Part shown: piece by piece, positions 1,525 through 58,045 of the stretch
Layout: the number at the start of each line of letters is the position of its first letter
How positions within the stretch are numbered: the first letter of the stretch is position 1
Source: a virus
Direction: 5' to 3' (one strand)
Virus genome (UHGV): UHGV-0125682
DNA: 64,000 nt
Made by a program: the position numbers and the translations under genes
The notes under the pieces: model-generated
The model's database searches: none
What the model was told of the DNA's origin: nothing
Seen by the model: the letters and a program-made list of their open reading frames with translations, nothing else

Positions 1525-4500
1525 TTGAACAAGTCAGTTACTTCCGCGCTATCCGAAGCAGCAGACATTAACAGTGTTATTGCGCTGGTTTCTTCATTAG
1601 AGAGGCGAGAAACACGCCAGGGGCGCAGTAGTTACGTAGTCACCAGTAAAGGGGCAGAGGTAAAGACGGCTTTTAAGGTCGTTGATGCCAGCAGTCTGAT
1701 CATTTCGAACAACCTTGACGGTACGATTAATCCGGCCTTCCCGGAAGAACTCCAGCCACGTGACCGTACACGGCTATCAAGCAAACTCCAGGTTAACCGT
1801 ATTGCCTCCAATTTACGCCCGGCACAATTAACGGATTCCGGCATGAGCAGCCACGGAGCGCCGATAGTTGGTCCGGACAACGTTGTTGAATCCGGCAACG
1901 GAAGGAGCATGGGTATCTGGCGTGCCTATGAGCAAGGGCAGGCGGATGAATATCGCCAGTACCTGATCGATCATGCAAAAGAGTTTGGTCTGAATCCTGA
2001 CGACATTTCACAAATGTCTATGCCCGTATTGGTGCGAGAAAGACTCACAGATGTAGACCGCGCACAATTTGCCCGCGATTCAAACATCAGCGATCTGCAA
2101 GAGATGGCTGCAAGTGAAAAAGCGTATGCGGATGCGCAATTTCTCACTGAGAGCGTCATGGCGCTATTTAATCCTTCAGATGATGGAAATCTACTGGCGC
2201 GGTCCAATGATGCGTTTATTCGTGCGTTTTTGCGCGAAATAGGTGATACGGCGACGGCAGGTTTGCTTACTGCCGATGGGCGTCCAACGAAACAACTTAT
2301 CGACCGCATCCAGAATGCAATTTTTGCCAAAGCGTACAAGGATGAAAGGCTTGTTCGGCTGGTGGCGGAAGAGCCAGATCCGGAAATGCGTAACATTCTT
2401 ACCGCATTAAATACGGCAGCCAGCGATTTTGCGCAAATGCAGTCGCTTTCAGGTGATGTTCACCATGACACGGTAACCGGACTGGTAGACGGTATAGAGC
2501 AATTGAATGGTCTGGATAAACAGGCTATTGCCGCGCTACAGGAAGCAATTAACCTTGTTCGTGAAGCAAAAGATAACGGTCAGGCAGTAGAAGAGGTGAT
2601 CGCACAGCGTGGATTGTTTGGAGATAGCACTCCGGAAGCAGAAGCGCTTGCTCTGTTTATTGTTGCCAACAACCGAAGCGCTAAGCGAATGGGGGCAGCT
2701 TTCAAGAAACTGGCGCAAAAAATTAACGATGAACTTATTCACCAGCAACAAGCGTTAGGCGATATGTTCGGCGGCGGAGATGTCGATCTGCGTAGCATTT
2801 TATCTGCCGTTTCTGATGAAATTGAGGCTGAGTATGGCGAAGGTAAAGGGCTTAATTTCGCCATGTTTGAATCGGTTTCAGGAGAGGTCGAACCATACAT
2901 TTCAAAGCTAATTGCTGATGCGACCAGCGTGGAGGACTTGATCCGAATCGTGAAGGTGTCAGAAAAAATTAAGGAGTCCGCAAAAAAAATAAAGCGCAAT
3001 GTATTTTTGGAACTTGGTTTTTATATTCGCAATGTCACCGTTAATGAGATTAAGGAGTGGGCTAAACGTTATGGATACAGCGACGCTGTGTTAACAACGA
3101 TGTTATTGTCTTATCAACGCAGCAATTTTTATGCTAACGCACTGCGTGACGCGATTGAAAAAGGAGATGAAGCTCCTTCGCTCGCAGATGAAAGAAATAT
3201 TGATTGTGATATTGAAACGTTTTGCAACATATCAGAAGAAGGCGTGCCCGCTGAACAATTTATACGTGTTTTACATAATGCAGCAAAACATATTCCTGAT
3301 GACTTTAGTATTGATGAATTGCGCAATGGTTGTCTTGTTTGGTTAGGTAACTATTTAAAATCTCCAGCGTCTATTGCAGAGAAAACAGCTTTAAGATTTA
3401 GAAAGGAAATGAATAAAGCTGGAAGCGCAGAAGAGATGGTGTGCATAATCCAAAATACTTTGAAGTTATTCAAAAAGAGCTTGCATAATATCGACGATAT
3501 TATGGCGGCTGGTAGGAAAATAACAGCCAGTGTCGGAGTTAGCTCTGAACTAACGGCAGAGGAGATCGCTGATGCGTATATTGAGACACTTGTCAGGCTT
3601 AAGGAGATAGTGGAATTAGCAGAGCATTCCTCATATTACGGAATCAAGGAGCGTGTTGACTTTACTATAGAACAAATCAATAAAGTTAGGTCAAATAAGG
3701 AAAAACTCACTGACTACCTTGCTGATGTTTTGCACCAGAATGATCATGGGATTGGATATGATCTGAAAAAAATGCTTGTTTTTAATCTGGACATACCGGA
3801 AGACTTGCAAGCAGAACTATATGAAATAGCTTCATTAACACGTGGACAAAAAGCCTATCCTAATGCGCTTGAAAATGTAGTACATAAAAAAGTCAGAGCC
3901 GCATTTGACATGATTCTTGAATCGTCAAATGTGTCACATGACCAGTCTAAGGAATGGAGTCGTGGGATTGCTATTTCTGATGAAGCAGAGCAGTTAAGTG
4001 GTCACGATAATGAAACTTTCTCCCGTAAAGCATACAGTATTCGCGAGACGATTGAAAAAGCCTATATTATTTCAGGAGGGACTTTATCTACATTAAAAAA
4101 TATTAACCACAAGAACAATGTTCGTGCTTTTGCAAGTCGAAATGGGAATATAACAATTGATGCTAATAGTGATCACGAGCGTGTATTATGGCATGAAATA
4201 GGTCACCATATAGAACATTCAAATCCCCATCTATTGGAGAGGGCCAAAGCCTTCATTAAATCAAAAACTAACGGTAAAGTTTCTTATCATAATATTGGTA
4301 GCCGTGGCAGTGCTGAGTATTTGGTGCGAACCGACCTAAGTCATGGATATATGTCTAAAATTTATATGGAAAATACGGTAAGTTCTGTCAGCGGCAGATT
4401 TATATCAAAGCCACCTGCATTAAGCAATTGCAGGGCGACTGAGATTTTTTCTATGGCCTTGCAGATGTATGCCGATCCGGAGCAGGCGACTAACTCTGTA

Positions 4501-4566
4501 TTAAACAATGACGGCGTGCTGGAATTTTTCTTGGGATGTATGAAGGAGTTGCAAAATGAAGTATAG
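1525..4566 (+). CDS. large polyvalent virion-type protein: ParB-like N-terminal motifs, HExxH metallopeptidase-like motif near C-terminus (P1 DdrB-sized)
   Basis: 1013-aa ORF; N-terminal NPAFPEELQPRDRTRL and GNGRSMGIWRA resemble ParB/Srx nuclease-domain motifs; WHEIGHH at about aa 885; C-terminal half markedly more AT-rich. Confidence 0.65.
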   Translation: MNKSVTSALSEAADINSVIALVSSLERRETRQGRSSYVVTSKGAEVKTAFKVVDASSLIISNNLDGTINPAFPEELQPRDRTRLSSKLQVNRIASNLRPAQLTDSGMSSHGAPIVGPDNVVESGNGRSMGIWRAYEQGQADEYRQYLIDHAKEFGLNPDDISQMSMPVLVRERLTDVDRAQFARDSNISDLQEMAASEKAYADAQFLTESVMALFNPSDDGNLLARSNDAFIRAFLREIGDTATAGLLTADGRPTKQLIDRIQNAIFAKAYKDERLVRLVAEEPDPEMRNILTALNTAASDFAQMQSLSGDVHHDTVTGLVDGIEQLNGLDKQAIAALQEAINLVREAKDNGQAVEEVIAQRGLFGDSTPEAEALALFIVANNRSAKRMGAAFKKLAQKINDELIHQQQALGDMFGGGDVDLRSILSAVSDEIEAEYGEGKGLNFAMFESVSGEVEPYISKLIADATSVEDLIRIVKVSEKIKESAKKIKRNVFLELGFYIRNVTVNEIKEWAKRYGYSDAVLTTMLLSYQRSNFYANALRDAIEKGDEAPSLADERNIDCDIETFCNISEEGVPAEQFIRVLHNAAKHIPDDFSIDELRNGCLVWLGNYLKSPASIAEKTALRFRKEMNKAGSAEEMVCIIQNTLKLFKKSLHNIDDIMAAGRKITASVGVSSELTAEEIADAYIETLVRLKEIVELAEHSSYYGIKERVDFTIEQINKVRSNKEKLTDYLADVLHQNDHGIGYDLKKMLVFNLDIPEDLQAELYEIASLTRGQKAYPNALENVVHKKVRAAFDMILESSNVSHDQSKEWSRGIAISDEAEQLSGHDNETFSRKAYSIRETIEKAYIISGGTLSTLKNINHKNNVRAFASRNGNITIDANSDHERVLWHEIGHHIEHSNPHLLERAKAFIKSKTNGKVSYHNIGSRGSAEYLVRTDLSHGYMSKIYMENTVSSVSGRFISKPPALSNCRATEIFSMALQMYADPEQATNSVLNNDGVLEFFLGCMKELQNEV

Positions 4567-4849
4567 CATTGTGAGTCCCGCTGGGATTAGAGGGATTGTT
4601 GAATGCTCTGATGACGGCACATTGCGTATATTTGAAGGCGATATTTCGGAAGAAAATATTGCGCAAGATTTACGCTTTATCAACACAAATTCCGCAATGG
4701 GGATCGTGAATACCATTCATGCCGATGGGGTGTTTGTTCTGCGGAGCCTGGAAACTGTTGGCTGGGAGGTTGAGTGGCCAGAGGTGGAAGGAGATCCTGA
4801 CGACGAAGACGATACTGGCGAATCATATCAAGACATTGATGTGAATTGA
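4556..4849 (+). CDS. small highly acidic protein (97 aa)
   Basis: ORF overlapping stop of the 1013-aa gene; C-terminus EVEGDPDDEDDTGESYQDIDVN; followed by intrinsic terminator. Confidence 0.5.
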   Translation: MKYSIVSPAGIRGIVECSDDGTLRIFEGDISEENIAQDLRFINTNSAMGIVNTIHADGVFVLRSLETVGWEVEWPEVEGDPDDEDDTGESYQDIDVN

Positions 4850-4885: not shown

Positions 4886-5147
4886 AGCGTGGTGTAAGAA
4901 TAAATTCAGGATGCTCTCCAGCAAGCAATAACAGGTACTCAAATTCACCAGCCATAAGGCGTCTCGGTTTATTTCTATCTTCTTTGAATTGCCAAGCCCG
5001 GAGTTGATACCCCATTTTGTGGGCTAACTCCGTTTGCGTTAGCCCCATTCGCTGGCGGATTTCAATTATAGTTTCCGGGGTGTTTGGTGGGAGTTGTTTC
5101 ACAATATGCCCTTTGCCAATGCTGTGATTCGCAACGAAGTATATCAT
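4884..5147 (-). CDS. XRE-family HTH protein (antitoxin-like)
   Basis: MGLTQTELAHKMG helix-turn-helix signature; downstream partner of 5160..5462. Confidence 0.55.
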   Translation of the reverse strand: MIYFVANHSIGKGHIVKQLPPNTPETIIEIRQRMGLTQTELAHKMGYQLRAWQFKEDRNKPRRLMAGEFEYLLLLAGEHPEFILTPR

Positions 5148-5159
5148 CGTTGAATCGAT

Positions 5160-5462
5160 TCACAGAGCTGCGCCGAATAGACCGCAGCATGGCATCCCTT
5201 CATCACAGTACCTGGCCCATTCTTTTTGGCATTCTTCTGTTTGCGCGTATTGGCTTAACGCGTCATCCAGCATATCCCAGGCCTTATAGGAATCCTCTGC
5301 AACGCTAAACAAAGTCCTGCCTTCCCGGCTTAGAATTTGCAGATTGTAAATGTTTTCATTGCTCAGACATGCGCGGCTGATATGCATGTAAACCGACCAT
5401 GCAGGAACTCGATTTTTGATAGCAAGTTGGTGTAATTTGGAATTAATTAAAGAGCTTTTCAT
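5160..5462 (-). CDS. hypothetical protein, upstream partner of the HTH gene (start reassigned to MKSSLIN with GGAGA RBS)
   Basis: ORF with good RBS; toxin-then-HTH-antitoxin gene order. Confidence 0.45.
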   Translation of the reverse strand: MKSSLINSKLHQLAIKNRVPAWSVYMHISRACLSNENIYNLQILSREGRTLFSVAEDSYKAWDMLDDALSQYAQTEECQKEWARYCDEGMPCCGLFGAAL

Positions 5463-5645: not shown

Positions 5646-7328
5646 ATGGCAACGAAAGACAAAAACAAAGGCTTTCTGTCGGCATTGAAGAAAGCCTTCA
5701 ACAGTGGCGATGTCACGCCTGCCGATCCGGTCGTTTTTACGAGCGGTCATAGTGTCGTTGCGCGTTCTGGTCTGTCCGCTTTACGTCCGGGGATACTGGG
5801 TGGCAATAGCGATGGCATGACAAGCGCGGCAGATACAGTATCAATTTCGGCAGAACTGCCCGGCGACCGCCTGCAAAAGTACAACATCCTGGAAACGATG
5901 GCTAAAAGCCCGACTATCTCGACGGCTTTAAATATTCACATTGCACATGCGCTTGCGCCTTCAAAAAAAACCGGACAAGCATTCATCCTTTCGCCAAAGG
6001 ATGGTTCCGATGCCGAGGCAGTAAGTAGATGTGAAGAGTTAACCGCTGATTTGGGGACGATGATTAATGACGGACTTCCTTCATGGGCCATGATTATGGC
6101 GATCTTTGGGGTGTCTTATGTCCGACCTTATGCTGAACAGGGCAGGGGGATAACAGGCATTGAGTCCAGTTATTACACTCTGCCACACTTCGTCCAGGAG
6201 TTTTATCGTGGTAGCCAGCTGGTAGGTTTCAGTGGTGATTACATTCTGGATACGCATAGTTTGCGCAGAGTAATAACCGAACCGTGGAATCTGGTTTCCA
6301 TGAAAAATCCCTATTGGACGCCACAGCATAAAGTTATTCCGGTTAGCTACGGCACAAAAGGGTACTCACTGTTAAGTGATCAGGCTGATAAGCCGTTAAT
6401 GGAGACGCAGAATTACGGAACTTCATTCCTGGAATACAGCTATGAACCTTACCTTAATTTATGTGCTTCGCTCGCCGCGCTGAAATCAACGCGAAATAAT
6501 GCAGCCAAAATTGACCGCCTGATTGCTCTTACGACGAACACACTGGACCCGGTTAATGCGGCGAACTATACGCGTGGCGTCAGCCAGGCATTGAAGCGTC
6601 ATAGTGACCTGGTGGCGCAAAGGTCGATTAATGCCAACGCTATTCCGACTGTGCTTAACCATCTGATACCTGTTATGGGAGACGGGAAGAACGGCATCAC
6701 CATTGATACGCAATCCATACCCGCAGATATCAGTGGTATCGAAGACGTTATGTTTCACCTCCGGCAGCTTGCTGCAAGCCTCGGCATTGACGCAACAATG
6801 CTTGGCTGGGCTGATCAGATGAGCGGAGGGCTTGGAGAAGGCGGCTGGCAGCAAACTGCTATCCAGGCTGCATTGCGTGCGAACTGGATCAGACAGGCCG
6901 CCCAGCGAACTATTTATCGGCTTCTGGACATTCACCTCGCTTATAAATACGGCAAGGTTTACACCGAAACAAACCGCCCTTATGACGTGCAATTCAACTC
7001 AATGAACACAGCTATCCAGGAAGAGGAAAACCGAGAACTGGATGCACGCGCCAACTTTGTTGCTGTCATCTCCCAAATTATGGACCAGATCCAGAACAAC
7101 CCGAAACTGGCTGGTAGTGACGCGTTTATGCGTTATCTGTTCACCGAGCAGTTGCACATCGACGATGACACTCTCAACACCATGATCAAAGAGTTTAAGG
7201 CGAATGAATCAGAGCAAAACAGCGAGCATGGTATGTACGAATCCGCGCCGTTGTCGTCCGGTGACGATCCGGAAAACTGGACGCCAGAACAGTTAATAAA
7301 CTTTGCAAAATTTGTGATGAGCAATTAA
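5646..7328 (+). CDS. putative head morphogenesis protein, portal-like by size and position
   Basis: 560-aa ORF followed by coiled-coil protein; assignment by synteny only. Confidence 0.35.
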   Translation: MATKDKNKGFLSALKKAFNSGDVTPADPVVFTSGHSVVARSGLSALRPGILGGNSDGMTSAADTVSISAELPGDRLQKYNILETMAKSPTISTALNIHIAHALAPSKKTGQAFILSPKDGSDAEAVSRCEELTADLGTMINDGLPSWAMIMAIFGVSYVRPYAEQGRGITGIESSYYTLPHFVQEFYRGSQLVGFSGDYILDTHSLRRVITEPWNLVSMKNPYWTPQHKVIPVSYGTKGYSLLSDQADKPLMETQNYGTSFLEYSYEPYLNLCASLAALKSTRNNAAKIDRLIALTTNTLDPVNAANYTRGVSQALKRHSDLVAQRSINANAIPTVLNHLIPVMGDGKNGITIDTQSIPADISGIEDVMFHLRQLAASLGIDATMLGWADQMSGGLGEGGWQQTAIQAALRANWIRQAAQRTIYRLLDIHLAYKYGKVYTETNRPYDVQFNSMNTAIQEEENRELDARANFVAVISQIMDQIQNNPKLAGSDAFMRYLFTEQLHIDDDTLNTMIKEFKANESEQNSEHGMYESAPLSSGDDPENWTPEQLINFAKFVMSN

Positions 7329-35614: not shown

Positions 35615-35994
35615 CAAATATTGGAACCATATAGTTCACGTAGTTTTTTCGCTACTGAAGATACGGGGATTTCACCAGTTGCAGCCCCCACTGCAAGCTC
35701 CACCAGCACGGGATCATCATATACCTGTATACCGTTACGGCGTAGAAATAGCAGCGCACTGTTTAGCGCGGTACGCTTATTGGCATCATTGAATATATGC
35801 CCTCTCGCCGTAGCCACCAGGTAGGTGGCGGAGACTTCGAAAAGGTCGGTGATCTCTTCGTAGGCAACTCTGGCCTGAACTCTCCCGATAATGGCCTCTG
35901 CCCTACCCGGATCTGACATTCCCGGCAGGCCGCCGTAGCGGCTTATATTCGCATCATGAAGCGCAATAAGTTCTTCCGGTGATATATGCCTCAT
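35614..35994 (-). CDS. doc: Doc toxin (Fic-fold)
   Basis: Near-identical in my recollection to P1 Doc ([22 protein letters not shown]...). Confidence 0.9.
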
Positions 35995-36215
35995 TATCGG
36001 TTAACCAGTTCCTTGTTGGTGGAGTCCAGGGTGTCAAACAGGGATGCAAATTCGGCATCCAGCGCCGCTTTTTTGTAGGCTTCAAAAGTAGCCTTGCTAA
36101 CAATTACTGCTGGCTCACGGCCTCTGCGGGTGATTTCAACCTCTTCCCCGGCTTCAACATTGTTGAGCACTTCAGAAAGGTTGCCGCGCGCGGTACGGAA
36201 GTTAATGGATTGCAT
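35994..36215 (-). CDS. phd: Phd antitoxin
   Basis: [17 protein letters not shown]..., stop/start overlap with doc. Confidence 0.9.
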
Positions 36216-53798: not shown

Positions 53799-54126
53799 TC
53801 ACATTAGTAGCTTTGTTAACTCCCTCAATACCAGGTAGAAGAGTAACAAAAATATTGACGCCAGTATTTGAGTGGACAATGAAGCGTTCATAAACAGATC
53901 AATTAGCATTAATAATTCGAAGATAACATCCATGTCATGCACTCCGTTTAATTTTTAATCTAATGCCAGCAAATGAAGCTGGCCCCCGCATAAAGATTAA
54001 TGAAAGTCACTTGTCACCAGTGAGGGGATTTATGAACCACATCCCCCTGAACTGGTGGCCTGTCTGTTTCTCGCATTTCACACCCTGCATACAGTTTCCC
54101 CCAGGTTATGACTGAGGGGCTTTGTT

Positions 54127-54456
54127 ATGGGCTATAGCAGACTCGACGATAGGTACATTGAAGACGATATTTTTCGTGCGCTGTTTCACCAGGAAATGAT
54201 TAAGCGGGTATCGGAGTATCACTCTGATAATTTCCAGTACACGATAAAGATTGATGAAGTATATCGTTCAGACCTTGCAGCCTACAGGGCGTATGGCAAT
54301 GCAGATTTGCGCTGGGTATTCCGGGTGCTGGTGGGCCATGAGTCAGAAATGGAAGAAATGCCCGCCGGGACCACGTTAACTCTTCCTGATGTGGCATGGC
54401 TGAGGAACAAGATCCGTGATTACGCGAGCGCGGAACCGGAGATAGAAAATGCCTGA
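54127..54456 (+). CDS. hypothetical protein
   Basis: ORF, overlaps next gene. Confidence 0.5.
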   Translation: MGYSRLDDRYIEDDIFRALFHQEMIKRVSEYHSDNFQYTIKIDEVYRSDLAAYRAYGNADLRWVFRVLVGHESEMEEMPAGTTLTLPDVAWLRNKIRDYASAEPEIENA

Positions 54457-55639
54457 TTTCCTGAAAAACCAGGACGGGCGCTATATCACTGACGGTCTGT
54501 CCTCTAAGGACTTCACGCGTTTATTCGACCTTATCAGGAAAGAACAAACCCGTAAGCGCCGACAAGCTCACCGGACGCTGACGCCAGGCAGACTTAGGAA
54601 CAAATCCGCCGAAGATATTCTCAAGTTAGGGAAGAAAAAAGGCGGCACGTTCTTTACGCGAGACGATCTGAAAGGCTTCGAAAAGCTACGGAGTAAAACG
54701 CGCGAAAAATATGACAGCAAGACGGCTGGCATCACATACGCCCAGCTGGTGGCATCCAGCCAGGCTATCGATATTAAGCGTGCAAATAACGCCGTGGATG
54801 ACGGATCTGGTATCAAAAGAGCTACACCCGTATCTCTTCGCCACAATGTGATTAATATCCGCGTAGAAGCATCGGATATATCCGTCCACCAGCACCATAT
54901 CGTCCGGATACGCTTTGAAGAATGGGATCAGATGGTTGATGATATCGCAGAAGACGATAAATCAGCTCTCAAAATCACTAAATCACTGTGCGCCGGGCGA
55001 GTGTCTTTCGATTGTGACTGTGGTCGTCATCAATACTGGTATCGTTACATCGCCACTGCGGGTAACTTTGCCCTGGCACCGCCAAAAGAATACGCCTATC
55101 CAAAAGTTCGCAACCCGAAGCTGCAAGGCGTCGCCTGTAAACACGTGATCCACTCAATGACGCGGTTACAGTCCGCCAGTTGGCAAATGAGTATTGCTCG
55201 TGCGCTACAAAAGGCTGCAACGCAAATTGCATTTGGTGACGATCGCCGCCGTACAACCAAACACTTCTCAAAAGAAGACGAGAAGGAGTTTAATCGCAAT
55301 CGTAGCAGTAAAACGAACGTTGACGCTGCCAAGCGAGAATGGAGGCTCTATCAGAAGCGCCAGGCCGCTTTAAGCACAAAACTGGCAAAGGACAACGGCA
55401 AGATTGACAAGCTACGTGACCAACTGACCAAGGCCAGAAAGTTGTCAGACGCACAGAAAAAACGGGCGGCAGCAAAAGAAGCGGCGTTGCAACGTGAGAA
55501 ACAGAAAAACAAGGAGCTTCAGCAACGCCTGGCCGATCAGTTCGCACTGAAGAAGCAGGCGTTCATTGATGCGCTTGTCATGGCTGGAACACCACCAGCA
55601 CAAGCTGAAAAAATGTTCATGGAGTACATAAAAAATTAA
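54449..55639 (+). CDS. hypothetical protein with CxC...CxH (SWIM-like) zinc-finger motif and basic coiled-coil tail
   Basis: FDCDCGRHQYW...GVACKHV. Confidence 0.5.
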   Translation: MPDFLKNQDGRYITDGLSSKDFTRLFDLIRKEQTRKRRQAHRTLTPGRLRNKSAEDILKLGKKKGGTFFTRDDLKGFEKLRSKTREKYDSKTAGITYAQLVASSQAIDIKRANNAVDDGSGIKRATPVSLRHNVINIRVEASDISVHQHHIVRIRFEEWDQMVDDIAEDDKSALKITKSLCAGRVSFDCDCGRHQYWYRYIATAGNFALAPPKEYAYPKVRNPKLQGVACKHVIHSMTRLQSASWQMSIARALQKAATQIAFGDDRRRTTKHFSKEDEKEFNRNRSSKTNVDAAKREWRLYQKRQAALSTKLAKDNGKIDKLRDQLTKARKLSDAQKKRAAAKEAALQREKQKNKELQQRLADQFALKKQAFIDALVMAGTPPAQAEKMFMEYIKN

Positions 55640-55641
55640 CA

Positions 55642-55666
55642 AAGGTGGGTTTATCCCACCTTTTTA
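55642..55666. terminator. bidirectional intrinsic terminator
   Basis: aggtgggtttatcccacct hairpin flanked by A and T runs. Confidence 0.65.
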
Positions 55667-56382
55667 TTAGCATCGCATTTAATTTTTTCAAGTGAATCAG
55701 AAAGCTTTGAGAGAAGCTCCTCAAGTGTTTCCCTGTCATTTGTATCACCCGAACGAAAAGATGAGTTTTTCACGGCGGTAAAAAATTCATAAAAATCATC
55801 CACCGAATTTAAGCTCTCACCTTTCTCTCTATATAATTTAATAATATGAATGATATCGCTATCCACACATTCAATCTGTTTCCTAATTTCTTTAAGCCGT
55901 TTTTCTAATGATTCAAGTTCTTCTTCTTGTTCAATATACTTTTTAACGTCTCTCTGCTTCTTAATGGCTTTCTTAATATCACTGTTAATTGTCCTTATTT
56001 GTTCTTTTTTATTTGCAATTTCATCTATTTTTCTTAATTTAGCATATAATGTGCTTGTCACCAAAGAAATTAACAGGGTTAACAGTGGCGCTAATATTGA
56101 TGCCACAACACCATAAATAAAAGGCAAAACAAAATGAGCTACGAACGATGGTAAAAAAAGATTCCCCAATAATGGGATCTTTTCCCCGACAAACACTATA
56201 GATAATGTATACATAACATCATCTTTTGACTTCAGTAATATAAATATGTCTCGCCAATTAGAAATTAAAAACGAAATAAAAATGTAGGCAAAAACCTTAT
56301 TAAACAACTTATCTTTTACAGCATCTTCTAACAGATTTTGGGTAGAGGAGTTTTCCTTTTCTATTGATGAATCAGCGCTCAT
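55651..56382 (-). CDS. AT-rich membrane-anchored coiled-coil protein
   Basis: About 32 percent GC by eye versus roughly 50 percent for the phage; two transmembrane helices then Lys/Glu-rich coiled coil. Confidence 0.55.
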   Translation of the reverse strand: MSADSSIEKENSSTQNLLEDAVKDKLFNKVFAYIFISFLISNWRDIFILLKSKDDVMYTLSIVFVGEKIPLLGNLFLPSFVAHFVLPFIYGVVASILAPLLTLLISLVTSTLYAKLRKIDEIANKKEQIRTINSDIKKAIKKQRDVKKYIEQEEELESLEKRLKEIRKQIECVDSDIIHIIKLYREKGESLNSVDDFYEFFTAVKNSSFRSGDTNDRETLEELLSKLSDSLEKIKCDANKKVG

Positions 56383-56442
56383 ATAATTACCAAATATTTA
56401 AACATTGATTTTATGTAAAAGCGGTCATCCAGACCGCAAAAC

Positions 56443-56802
56443 TTAAACACCAACCAGACTTTCCAGTGGAATACCAAACTGGGCATGTAAACGACGAATC
56501 ATAGGTAACGTCAAATTTCGTGTCCCATTAAGCACTTCGTAAACACGGTTTGACTTACCAATTGCCGGTTCCAGATCCTTCACGGTCAGCCCTTGCTGTT
56601 CCATACGGAATTTAATGGCCTCAATAGGTGATGGTGGCTCAATTGGGTAATGTTTTTTCTCGTACTCCTCAATGAGAAGACACATGACCTCAAAGAAATC
56701 ACCTTCCGGGGTGTTCATTTCCGGTTCGTTATCGAACATCGGTTCGACCGCACGCAGTGCGGCCTCATAATCTTGTTCTGTACGGATAGGTTTAATGTTC
56801 AT
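56443..56802 (-). CDS. higA: HigA-like antitoxin (HTH)
   Basis: C-terminal HTH (GLTVKDLEPAIGKSNRVYEVLNG); downstream of HigB-like toxin. Confidence 0.75.
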   Translation of the reverse strand: MNIKPIRTEQDYEAALRAVEPMFDNEPEMNTPEGDFFEVMCLLIEEYEKKHYPIEPPSPIEAIKFRMEQQGLTVKDLEPAIGKSNRVYEVLNGTRNLTLPMIRRLHAQFGIPLESLVGV

Positions 56803-56805
56803 GAT

Positions 56806-57108
56806 TTACTCCAGTTCTATTGTATCCGCTTCAATGGCATCGTATTCCTTATGTGTTCCAATAAACTTAACGAACATCCATCCTCGCTGATAAGCAATTG
56901 CGACAATTAACCTGTAATCATTTCCCTTAATATTGAACACCACGCGCCTGTTTTTAAGGATGCTGGCTGTCCGGTACTGTTCTTTGATCTCAGCCGGATT
57001 TTTCCAGTCAGCCTTTGTTGCTTCATCAACCCATGCCTTTAATGGCTGTTCTGCATCGGGATTCTTCGCCCAGAAATCCCTTAGTGTTTTTACCGAAATT
57101 ATTTTCAT
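56806..57108 (-). CDS. higB: HigB-like toxin (RelE/ParE superfamily)
   Basis: FNIKGNDYRLIVAIAY...IGTHKEYD matches HigB family; start reassigned to MKIIS with AAGGAA RBS. Confidence 0.75.
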   Translation of the reverse strand: MKIISVKTLRDFWAKNPDAEQPLKAWVDEATKADWKNPAEIKEQYRTASILKNRRVVFNIKGNDYRLIVAIAYQRGWMFVKFIGTHKEYDAIEADTIELE

Positions 57109-57253
57109 CACAGATTCCTTCTCTCTGAAAGCAGAGTAGTCCCAATATGGGACAATGTAAAGCACTTTAGTCCCATGCTGGGATATGAATTGAAATCACA
57201 ATCTCCAGACAATGCACCCTCGATACCTGATAAATCGACCTTTGAGGATGCTT

Positions 57254-58045
57254 ATGGGCCGTTTTGACGAATGGTTTTCTGACGATGCAAACCTGGCAAG
57301 TAAGGAGTCAGAACATGACAGCACGCAGAGAGAAACGCCAGCGCCGATTGAAGCGAATGCAGGAGGCGCGCCGGAACATGGCAATACCAGTTCGGATTCA
57401 TTCAGCATTCTGGAAGAGCAACCCGCCGCCAAAGCTGATAGCCATGATAATTTTGCTGATAGCAACGGTGGCCTTACTCCAGATGCTGGCGAATCAGATA
57501 TAGCCATACTTCCACCTTCCCTGGCTGGCAGAGAACCAACTCCACAGCTAAAAGCACGCTATAACGGGCATAAAGCCTTTAACGACCAAATCCGCGCAGA
57601 CTGGATGCTGATTATTGAATCCAGCCCAGACGCGTTTCAGGCTCTCTTATATCGACCAGATGTTGGCACATATGGGGTAGTCAGCGACGAAACAGGAGAA
57701 GAGTCATTCACTGAACTGGATAACAACCAGCGCGAACTGACTTACCAGGAACCTGAAATCGTTTATGTGCTGGATAACCCGGACGGGCGTGACTCTTTCC
57801 ATGCGATTGACGCAGACGGTGAGCAGGATGGCTTAACCGATGATGTTCTGATTCTGCGTATTGCAGCAAATAACGTCCCCGTCGGCTCAATTCTTGAATG
57901 GAATGAAGAGATGGTAAACGGCGTAGCCCGCCGCTGGTGGTACGTGCACCGTATTTTTAGCTACGGCACACAGCATGTTGGTTCGCTTTACTACTGCATA
58001 CCAGCCAGGAATTTTGATACGACTCAAAACGGAGTGATCGAATGA
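57254..58045 (+). CDS. hypothetical acidic protein (possible tail/baseplate module)
   Basis: Start reassigned to MGRFDEWF with GAGGA RBS. Confidence 0.45.
   Translation: MGRFDEWFSDDANLASKESEHDSTQRETPAPIEANAGGAPEHGNTSSDSFSILEEQPAAKADSHDNFADSNGGLTPDAGESDIAILPPSLAGREPTPQLKARYNGHKAFNDQIRADWMLIIESSPDAFQALLYRPDVGTYGVVSDETGEESFTELDNNQRELTYQEPEIVYVLDNPDGRDSFHAIDADGEQDGLTDDVLILRIAANNVPVGSILEWNEEMVNGVARRWWYVHRIFSYGTQHVGSLYYCIPARNFDTTQNGVIE

Follow-up and report, generated by a model that had tools for sequence, protein, structure and literature searches.

An AT-rich membrane-protein gene next to a higBA module in the tail-gene cluster of a D6-like phage-plasmid, and its possible role in phage exclusion

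The viral genome UHGV-0125682 was studied here as one stretch of 64,000 nucleotides (the window), which from its sequence is a D6-like, P1-related phage-plasmid of Escherichia coli. Between homologues of the P1 tail genes 25 and 7 it carries a gene for a 243-residue membrane protein (the membrane gene) and a toxin–antitoxin (TA) operon of the HigB/HigA type. Comparison with related elements indicates that the locus is a recombination hot spot, in which two separate cassettes opposite the tail-gene strand are exchanged. That the membrane gene is accessory cargo passed on horizontally is well supported, and we conclude that it is autonomous, with the TA modules as neighbours that at most supply it with read-through transcription. 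Its context and architecture point to phage exclusion or abortive infection at the inner membrane as the best-supported reading of its function, to which we would give slightly less than an even chance. The features on which this account mainly rests are as follows.

54449..55639, + strand: homologue of P1 tail gene 25, with its stop at 55639
55641..55663, both strands: putative shared terminator hairpin, symmetric, with a 9-bp GC-rich stem (AAAGGTGGG-ATAAA-CCCACCTTT) and U-runs on either side
55651..56382, − strand: AT-rich membrane-protein gene, ATG start, 243 residues, predicted inner-membrane protein, member of phrog_8191
57212..58045, strand opposite to the cargo: homologue of P1 tail gene 7

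Cassette exchange between tail genes 25 and 7

The window was aligned in 100-nucleotide bins to eight related plasmids. Identity is 95-100% across the tail genes and across the gene of the 119-residue HigA-like helix-turn-helix (HTH) antitoxin, here called HTH119, whereas the membrane gene is only 45-70% identical or is deleted, with sharp borders at the gene 25 stop codon and close to the 5' end of the membrane gene. Plasmid pF374-2 has 99.4% identity over the region, and phage D6 can be aligned in part only. In one plasmid (L003) a recombination breakpoint lies inside the membrane gene, the first ~200 nucleotides being 79-97% identical and the remainder ~50%. Relative to the window allele, the variants found in the slot are 79-82%, 73%, 50%, 39% (259-275 residues) or 42% identical (the D6 orf73 type), or the gene is absent. 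The toxin block at 56800-57200 swaps independently of it and holds either HigB (PF09907) or a pair of RelE (PF05015) and HigA. A reading made from the sequence alone had regarded the membrane gene as horizontally acquired, and these borders agree with that view, as does its distribution in E. coli: among 5426 complete genomes a DNA-level homologue occurs in 58, it is plasmid-borne every time, and the window allele is present in only two.

The composition of the gene points in the same direction. Its GC content is 0.317 and its GC content at third codon positions (GC3) 0.287, as against 0.42-0.50 and 0.43-0.53 in the neighbouring genes, and it is the 732-bp stretch of lowest GC in the whole window (mean 0.478, standard deviation 0.035). 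Stretches of this length with a GC content as low make up 0.3%, and every one of them overlaps the membrane gene, which bears out the sequence-only reading that 55651..56382 is far more AT-rich than its surroundings. Conservation of the gene at normal composition across P1-like phages, which that reading had named as evidence to the contrary, was not what we found: P1 lacks the gene, and all 21 family genes examined are AT-rich, with a GC content 0.04-0.21 below that of their flanks.

A promoter-like pair of hexamers (TTAACA and TAATAT, 16-17 nucleotides apart) was seen on the + strand at 56070-56098, within the AT-rich gene and antisense to it. It could be a spurious AT-rich promoter or could give rise to an antisense transcript.

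The earlier description of the gene as an islet holds in so far as it is an AT-rich accessory gene, but not in the sense of a one-off insertion, as it is a regular occupant of the slot across D6-like phages. This includes three distant D6-like phages, in which a family member fills the slot between genes 7 and 25 with no TA module (L054, 2956-3645; L055, 2583-3227; L058, 3001-3717). The tail proteins of these distant phages are 57-73% identical, with ~57% for gene 7 and ~73% for gene 25 in L054 and L055. As the slot is occupied there without a TA module, it seems that the membrane gene settled in it first and that the TA modules came later. A metagenome scan contributed five loci to the comparison, one of which (L062) is the same contig stretch as L055.

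The membrane protein and its relatives

Hydropathy analysis places hydrophobic segments at residues ~30-50 and ~79-113 (transmembrane segments TM1 and TM2), and TM2 is followed by a Lys/Glu-rich helix at residues 114-186 that contains 20 Lys and Arg and 16 Asp and Glu residues. The layout of the protein thus comprises a short N-terminus, TM1, a loop, TM2, a predicted cytoplasmic coiled coil (114-186) and a small helical C-terminal domain (187-243). An AlphaFold2 model built on a 63-sequence alignment (predicted local distance difference test score, pLDDT, 83.8) joins TM2 and the coiled coil into a single helix spanning residues 79-186. The two transmembrane helices and the long Lys/Glu coiled coil that had been read from the sequence alone are confirmed. 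Counts of Lys and Arg favour an N-in/C-in arrangement in 98% of the 63 family members, and both termini are probably cytoplasmic.

In the family libraries the protein matches only phrog_8191 of PHROGs v4, the D6 orf73 group, to which no function is assigned, with an E-value of 5.9e-74 (residues 1-241 against profile positions 1-242 of 242). A word-indexed search returned 15 clusters at 90% identity, and an exhaustive profile search 72 representatives at E ≤ 1e-3, most of them 200-270 residues long and matching over their full length. The phrog_8191 group is hereby extended to about 70 diverged representatives outside D6-like phages, and as judged from these searches the wider family is undescribed. 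Among phage records a homologue was found in none but D6, scans of genome contigs for relatives gave none or only two loci, and a literature search on hot spots and superinfection exclusion returned nothing on the family. A search of PDB sequences with the membrane protein gave no match.

Conservation within the family is concentrated in the membrane part. In the 63-member alignment Asn42 is invariant, and Trp43, Pro87 and Pro99 are conserved in at least 90% of the sequences; in a 29-sequence alignment Asn42, Pro87, Gly91 and Pro99 are invariant. The family plan further includes a loop of ~19 residues after TM1 that starts with K-S-K, and a conserved Tyr184 in the C-terminal domain. The sequences in alignments A3 and A8 differed too much to be scanned for patterns. 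Among the D6-like alleles, the membrane part has a mean identity of 0.66, compared with 0.29 for the coiled coil and 0.39 for the C-terminal domain, and the ratio of nonsynonymous to synonymous substitution rates (dN/dS) between the window allele and the closest distinct allele is 0.12, 1.04 and 0.26 in the same order. These ratios indicate that the gene is functional and that the membrane module is constrained, and thereby show purifying selection on the membrane part at the level of the sequences, while the coiled coil is either free to vary or diversifying.

Relatives are found in a range of settings. One P2-like prophage carries its copy between the tail-completion genes (gpS) and gpV on the opposite strand, and another between ogr and gpD. 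In a lambdoid prophage the relative sits in the nin region, again on the opposite strand, and an island relative is accompanied by DUF4942, H-NS and DUF1173 genes. Further relatives adjoin a Ser/Thr kinase that matches mad6 (1e-21) and PD-T4-6 (8e-11), a 985-residue STAND/KAP NTPase with a restriction-like N-terminus, or a CdiA-like haemagglutinin. Read locus by locus, these contexts, together with the AT-richness of the genes, in our view mark the gene as a moron that moves from one conflict locus to another.

Some further loci deserve mention in their own right. In L031 (3309-4732) the family member P0049 begins 12 nucleotides after the gene of a 226-residue DUF4145 protein that matches PD-T7-4 (5e-13), with a resolvase gene adjoining, and the two may form a two-gene unit. 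The two-cassette design is found again, at ~2780-4730, on a second, unrelated plasmid backbone that has ParA-like and SLT genes close by (L021-L024 compared with L029): there, one of three different family alleles (P0030, P0036 or P0035) comes after TacA-TacT or HigB-HigA. On the Klebsiella pneumoniae plasmid p3IncF, a non-phage IncFIB plasmid (L009, 4174-6767), a cassette of HigB, an antitoxin gene (HTH139) and a family gene is flanked by insertion sequences (IS), and the family gene itself is split by an IS into an N-terminal part at 4941-5384 and a C-terminal part at 6432-6767. Klebsiella records that match by tblastn number 55, and a match to the N-terminal part only recurs among the matches listed.

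The toxin–antitoxin neighbours

Upstream of the membrane gene and on the same strand lies the HigB/HigA operon, with these features.

56421..56437, − strand: higBA hairpin, GCGGTC-TGGAT-GACCGC, with a 6-bp GC stem followed by TTTTAC, right after the higA stop
56443..56802, − strand: higA-like antitoxin gene (HTH119), 119 residues, N-terminal toxin-binding part and C-terminal HTH_3 at residues 63-115
56806..57108, − strand: higB toxin gene, 100 residues, Pfam PF09907 HigB_toxin, ATG at 57108 preceded by AGAAGGA
57133..57184, − strand: putative higBA promoter and operators, −35 TTTACA (57161-57156), 17-nucleotide spacer, weak −10 TACTCT (57138-57133)

HigB matches the Pfam HigB_toxin family at 3.3e-34 (117 bits, cut-off 27) over profile positions 1-74 of 74, and chain A of the E. 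coli K-12 HigB/HigA structure, PDB 5ifg_A, at 1e-7; HTH119 matches 5ifg_B at 2.8e-8 and has no peptidase domain according to Pfam. The antitoxin gene starts 3 nucleotides past the higB stop. As in the K-12 pair (ygjN/ygjM), the toxin comes first and is a 100-residue HigB_toxin protein, the antitoxin combines an N-terminal toxin-binding part with a C-terminal HTH, and the promoter holds palindromes. The window pair differs from it in being borne by a phage-plasmid within a tail-gene cluster and in the length of the antitoxin (119 as against 138 residues). On this evidence HigBA is a genuine type II TA system of the K-12 type, with toxicity and neutralization as predicted properties. A phd-doc module lies elsewhere in the window (35623-36215, − strand), so that higBA is the second TA module, just as had been read from the sequence alone. 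Phd and Doc are 100% and 92% identical to what we take to be the P1 proteins.

The higBA promoter was assigned by visual inspection; a promoter scan did not call it. A perfect palindrome, GTCCCAATATGGGAC (57139-57153), fills its spacer, and a near-palindrome, GTCCCATGCTGGGAT (57170-57184), lies 31 bp from the first. The palindrome pattern occurs twice in the whole window, against 1.8 occurrences expected by chance, and both of them fall within the 100-bp region of the higBA promoter. By analogy they are likely HigA operators, an assignment that rests on what is known of HigA autoregulation and of the function of PF09907-family HigBA (PMC11980606). HigB would act as a ribosome-dependent mRNase, and HigA would neutralize it and repress the promoter through the two palindromes. 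The operon, which would end in its own hairpin, most likely serves addiction to the plasmid-prophage and perhaps abortive infection; as far as its sequence tells, it is an ordinary addiction module with nothing unusual about it.

Two hairpins belong to the locus. The one at 55641-55663 folds with a free energy of −14.1 kcal/mol on either strand (z −3.7 and −4.1; 0 of 200 shuffled sequences were as stable), and the stop codon of the membrane gene lies inside its loop. As it folds equally on both strands and has U-runs on each side, it can end both the membrane gene and the convergent gene 25, and it is likely their common terminator. A bidirectional terminator had been proposed for this site; the hairpin and the U-runs on both strands make it plausible, but the scan tool called a terminator on the − strand only. 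The hairpin at 56421-56437 (−11.6 kcal/mol, z −3.9) is likely a leaky terminator or an attenuator of higBA. This hairpin, GCGGTCTGGATGACCGC, which lies 3' of the HTH119 stop, is conserved across all D6-like variants, and as it is kept even in those that lack the membrane gene, it is part of the TA operon and marks the cassette junction. Strong hairpins with stems of 14 and 10 bp, respectively, also lie between higA and the family gene in the two other cassettes linked to HigBA, in L010 (4895-4973) and L029 (3940-4003). They are unrelated in sequence, and their position mirrors that of the window hairpin at 56421-56437.

In phage D6 (L001, 5068-6195) and in most D6-like elements (L032-L053), RelE (PF05015) and a 112-residue HigA replace the PF09907 HigB, so that HTH119 stands there as an antitoxin without its toxin. 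In 10 of 22 D6-like loci from IMG/VR only ~65 residues of HTH119 remain, and in pGF60-C (L057, 2302-2661) it is a pseudogene with an internal stop; the membrane gene is intact in these loci. We regard this truncation, from the sequences at hand, as decay of an antitoxin after loss of its toxin. Conversely, the TA module is found without the membrane gene in L005 and L007.

These patterns bear on two ways in which the membrane gene might belong to the TA system. It could be the third part of a TA-derived system HigB-HigA-X, similar to PD-lambda-2 or HigBAC, in which the membrane protein, as an accessory sensor or effector, would link a sign of infection at the membrane with the release of HigB. 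A triad of HigB (PF09907), HTH antitoxin and family member, on the same strand and with 55-70 nucleotides between antitoxin and family gene, indeed recurs in three settings with deeply diverged parts: the window, Klebsiella IncFIB and Enterobacter D6-like plasmids (HigB 26%, family protein ~31% identical), and the second backbone represented by L029 (HigB 22%, family protein ~20%). Each of the three has a hairpin in its spacer, and this fits attenuated co-transcription; HigB and HTH119 strongly match PD-Lambda-2_A and PD-Lambda-2_B. Yet family members occur without a TA module in the same slot of the distant phages and alone in P2-like and lambdoid prophages, family genes also follow the unrelated modules TacAT and RelE/HigA, HTH119 is truncated or pseudogenized in many loci that retain the membrane gene, and the TA module persists without it. 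Co-divergence of the family alleles with the TA module was looked for and none was found, nor were HigA-type palindromes found upstream of the membrane gene. We therefore think that such a tripartite system is clearly unlikely. Still less probable, to the point of being hardly credible, is a second, overlapping TA pair in which the membrane protein is the toxin and HTH119 its antitoxin or repressor. Such a pair would fit the fact that D6 has kept HTH119 beside the membrane gene even with RelE-HigA in the place of the cognate HigB, but in the commonest variant HTH119 is deleted, truncated or pseudogenized and the membrane gene kept, family members occur without any HTH gene, and the membrane gene is not preceded by a HigA-type operator. 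Loci that keep the membrane gene have so often lost all or part of HTH119 that we rejected it as an antitoxin or a regulator of that gene. That the membrane gene is autonomous follows from the occurrence of the family gene without any TA module.

Membership in the two known three-gene systems was rejected as well. With PD-lambda-2 the locus shares a three-gene arrangement on a mobile element and close matches of its first two genes in PADLOC: HigB matches PD-Lambda-2_A at 1e-41, and HTH119 the first 119 positions of PD-Lambda-2_B at 7e-43. In PD-lambda-2, however, the B protein has a C-terminal ImmA/IrrE peptidase and is the toxic component, and the P4-antitoxin-like C protein is needed for defence (Vassallo et al. 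2022; PMC9519451). The window protein covers only positions 1-119 of the 402-position B profile and lacks the peptidase, and the third gene encodes an unrelated membrane coiled-coil protein with no match to PD-Lambda-2_C at E ≤ 1. HigBAC, or TAC, systems likewise have a HigB-HigA pair and a third gene, and occur in variable regions of temperate phages; their third gene encodes a SecB-like chaperone that binds the C-terminal ChAD extension of the antitoxin (Mets et al. 2024, via PMC11980606). Neither the window protein nor any of 29 family members matches a SecB family in Pfam, and as HTH_3 ends at residue 115 of 119 in HTH119, there is no room for a ChAD extension.

Possible functions of the membrane protein

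If the membrane protein acts in phage exclusion or abortive infection, the following course can be envisaged. The product of the autonomous moron would be an inner-membrane protein that assembles into homo-oligomers and has its two termini in the cytoplasm. In the lysogen it would be expressed at a low level, either by read-through of the higBA hairpin, which could be raised under stress, or constitutively from a weak AT-rich promoter, and at the inner membrane it would guard the lysogen against phages or other mobile DNA that arrive from outside. The specificity could be set by the variable cytoplasmic part, with its coiled coil and C-terminal domain, which would recognize a component of the invader, and the conserved membrane hairpin would be the effector that blocks DNA entry or perturbs the membrane, the latter leading to abortive infection. 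Its Asn-Trp and Pro/Gly/Pro motifs, which lie within the membrane, may serve to pack the oligomer or to form a pore.

Two described proteins come closest as analogues of such a way of working, with no detectable shared sequence or domain. SieA of P22 has 162-164 residues, three predicted transmembrane segments and no coiled coil, and exists in very divergent types (PMC10883804). Like the protein studied here, it is a small inner-membrane protein encoded by a single prophage gene, present in only some members of a phage group, with the inner membrane during DNA entry as its proposed site of action; no sequence similarity between the two was detected, and the role of the window protein is a proposed one. 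SNIPE consists of a membrane-anchored DUF4041 protein with a GIY-YIG nuclease, in which the C-terminal nuclease is conserved and the N-terminus variable (PMC13190303). Shared with it are the single gene, the N-terminal membrane anchor, the helical cytoplasmic middle and variable regions, for which binding to proteins of the phage or the host where injection takes place has been proposed. Here, in contrast, the membrane module is conserved and the C-terminus variable, the C-terminal domain has only ~57 residues and is helical, and neither DUF4041 nor the GIY-YIG nuclease was matched in Pfam by any of the 29 family members.

Several observations weigh against exclusion or abortive infection. The sequence-only reading had pointed to collections of defence-system models as a check, and this check was negative: searches of Pfam, PADLOC and NCBIfam with the window protein and 29 family members gave only coiled-coil noise (coiled-coil regions of LmuB and JetC, ZapB and SMC, and ORC_WH_C at 19 bits against a cut-off of 26). 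No significant match was obtained to models of known exclusion, abortive-infection (Abi) or effector proteins (SieB PF14163, TraS PF10624, the Abi and 2TM effectors of PADLOC), below the threshold being the membrane part against TraS (E 0.063) and a 2TM effector in one of the 29 members (4e-4). A fold search with the membrane protein gave no match, and a literature search by six family-protein accessions retrieved no paper. A promoter scan called none ahead of the membrane gene, and its Shine-Dalgarno sequence is weak. The relative P0020 occupies a plain chromosomal site between asr and a peptidase gene, accessory regions of any kind commonly contain TA modules and defence genes, relaxed constraint alone could explain a dN/dS of ~1 in the coiled coil, and the persistent synteny in the D6-like tail cluster could signal a phage-specific role.

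Such a role would be one in the life cycle of the phage-plasmid, for example in the timing of lysis, in DNA ejection or entry or in assembly steps at the membrane, with the membrane gene as a fast-evolving gene adjacent to the core. The filling of the slot between genes 7 and 25 even in distant D6-like phages and the presence of a member in most D6-like plasmids speak for it. But the gene is read from the other strand than the late tail genes and comes with a terminator of its own, about one in four of the D6-like plasmids among the matches listed (H14-H20, H36-H38) lacks it and otherwise looks intact, and it is absent from P1 and from all phage records besides D6. As relatives also sit on non-phage plasmids and in chromosomal islands, and the gene is IS-disrupted in Klebsiella plasmids, we find a life-cycle function improbable, and a spanin- or holin-type role in lysis, which was considered separately, is unlikely on account of the same non-phage plasmids and islands. 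Somewhat better placed, although still unlikely in our estimation, is a gene for lysogenic conversion or plasmid fitness unrelated to phage defence, the product of which could be an envelope or stress modulator, an entry-exclusion protein against related plasmids, or a membrane toxin silenced by H-NS. AT-rich DNA typically attracts H-NS, and moron-like placement and AT-richness are generic for many conversion genes; one relative lies beside the CdiA-like haemagglutinin and one in the chromosomal asr locus, and the membrane part has a faint, non-significant resemblance to TraS. Against this, hypervariable alleles at a fixed slot and recurrent defence-type neighbours better fit an arms race, and no Pfam or NCBIfam family backs any specific alternative.

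Exclusion or abortive infection can also be cast in a more specific form, which we regard as doubtful yet conceivable. The 243-residue protein would then belong to a new family of single-gene immunity or exclusion systems, widespread among the mobile elements of Enterobacterales and composed of a conserved two-helix intramembrane effector and a hypervariable coiled-coil sensor in the cytoplasm, with specificity cassettes at the C-terminus, and parked behind interchangeable TA operons that supply infection-responsive expression. Recombination would exchange the C-terminal cassettes, with the conserved 5' half of the membrane gene as its anchor, and the gene would be driven by stress-derepressed, leaky-terminated transcription of the TA operons (HigBA, RelE/HigA or TacAT).

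E. coli and Salmonella commonly harbour P1/D6-type phage-plasmids, which spread resistance genes and whose accessory slots thereby decide which phages and plasmids a lysogen accepts. The locus offers a delimited hot spot with a natural allele series of at least five alleles and empty sites in near-isogenic backbones, and its family, which also fills moron slots of P2-like and lambdoid prophages, is repeatedly juxtaposed with swappable TA modules. If the protein is indeed an exclusion or abortive-infection factor, a membrane-based single-gene system would be added to the catalogue of defences, with ready specificity variants to map its sensing, and a habitual parking behind TA operons, if real, would be a new mode of cooperation between TA modules and membrane effectors. 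Otherwise an ordinary HigBA addiction module and an AT-rich moron are documented.

The region holds another variable slot at 53799-54126, between a mat-like gene and gene 26. It contains a HigA-family antitoxin gene in the plasmids L002, L006 and L007, and only short open reading frames in the window and in D6.

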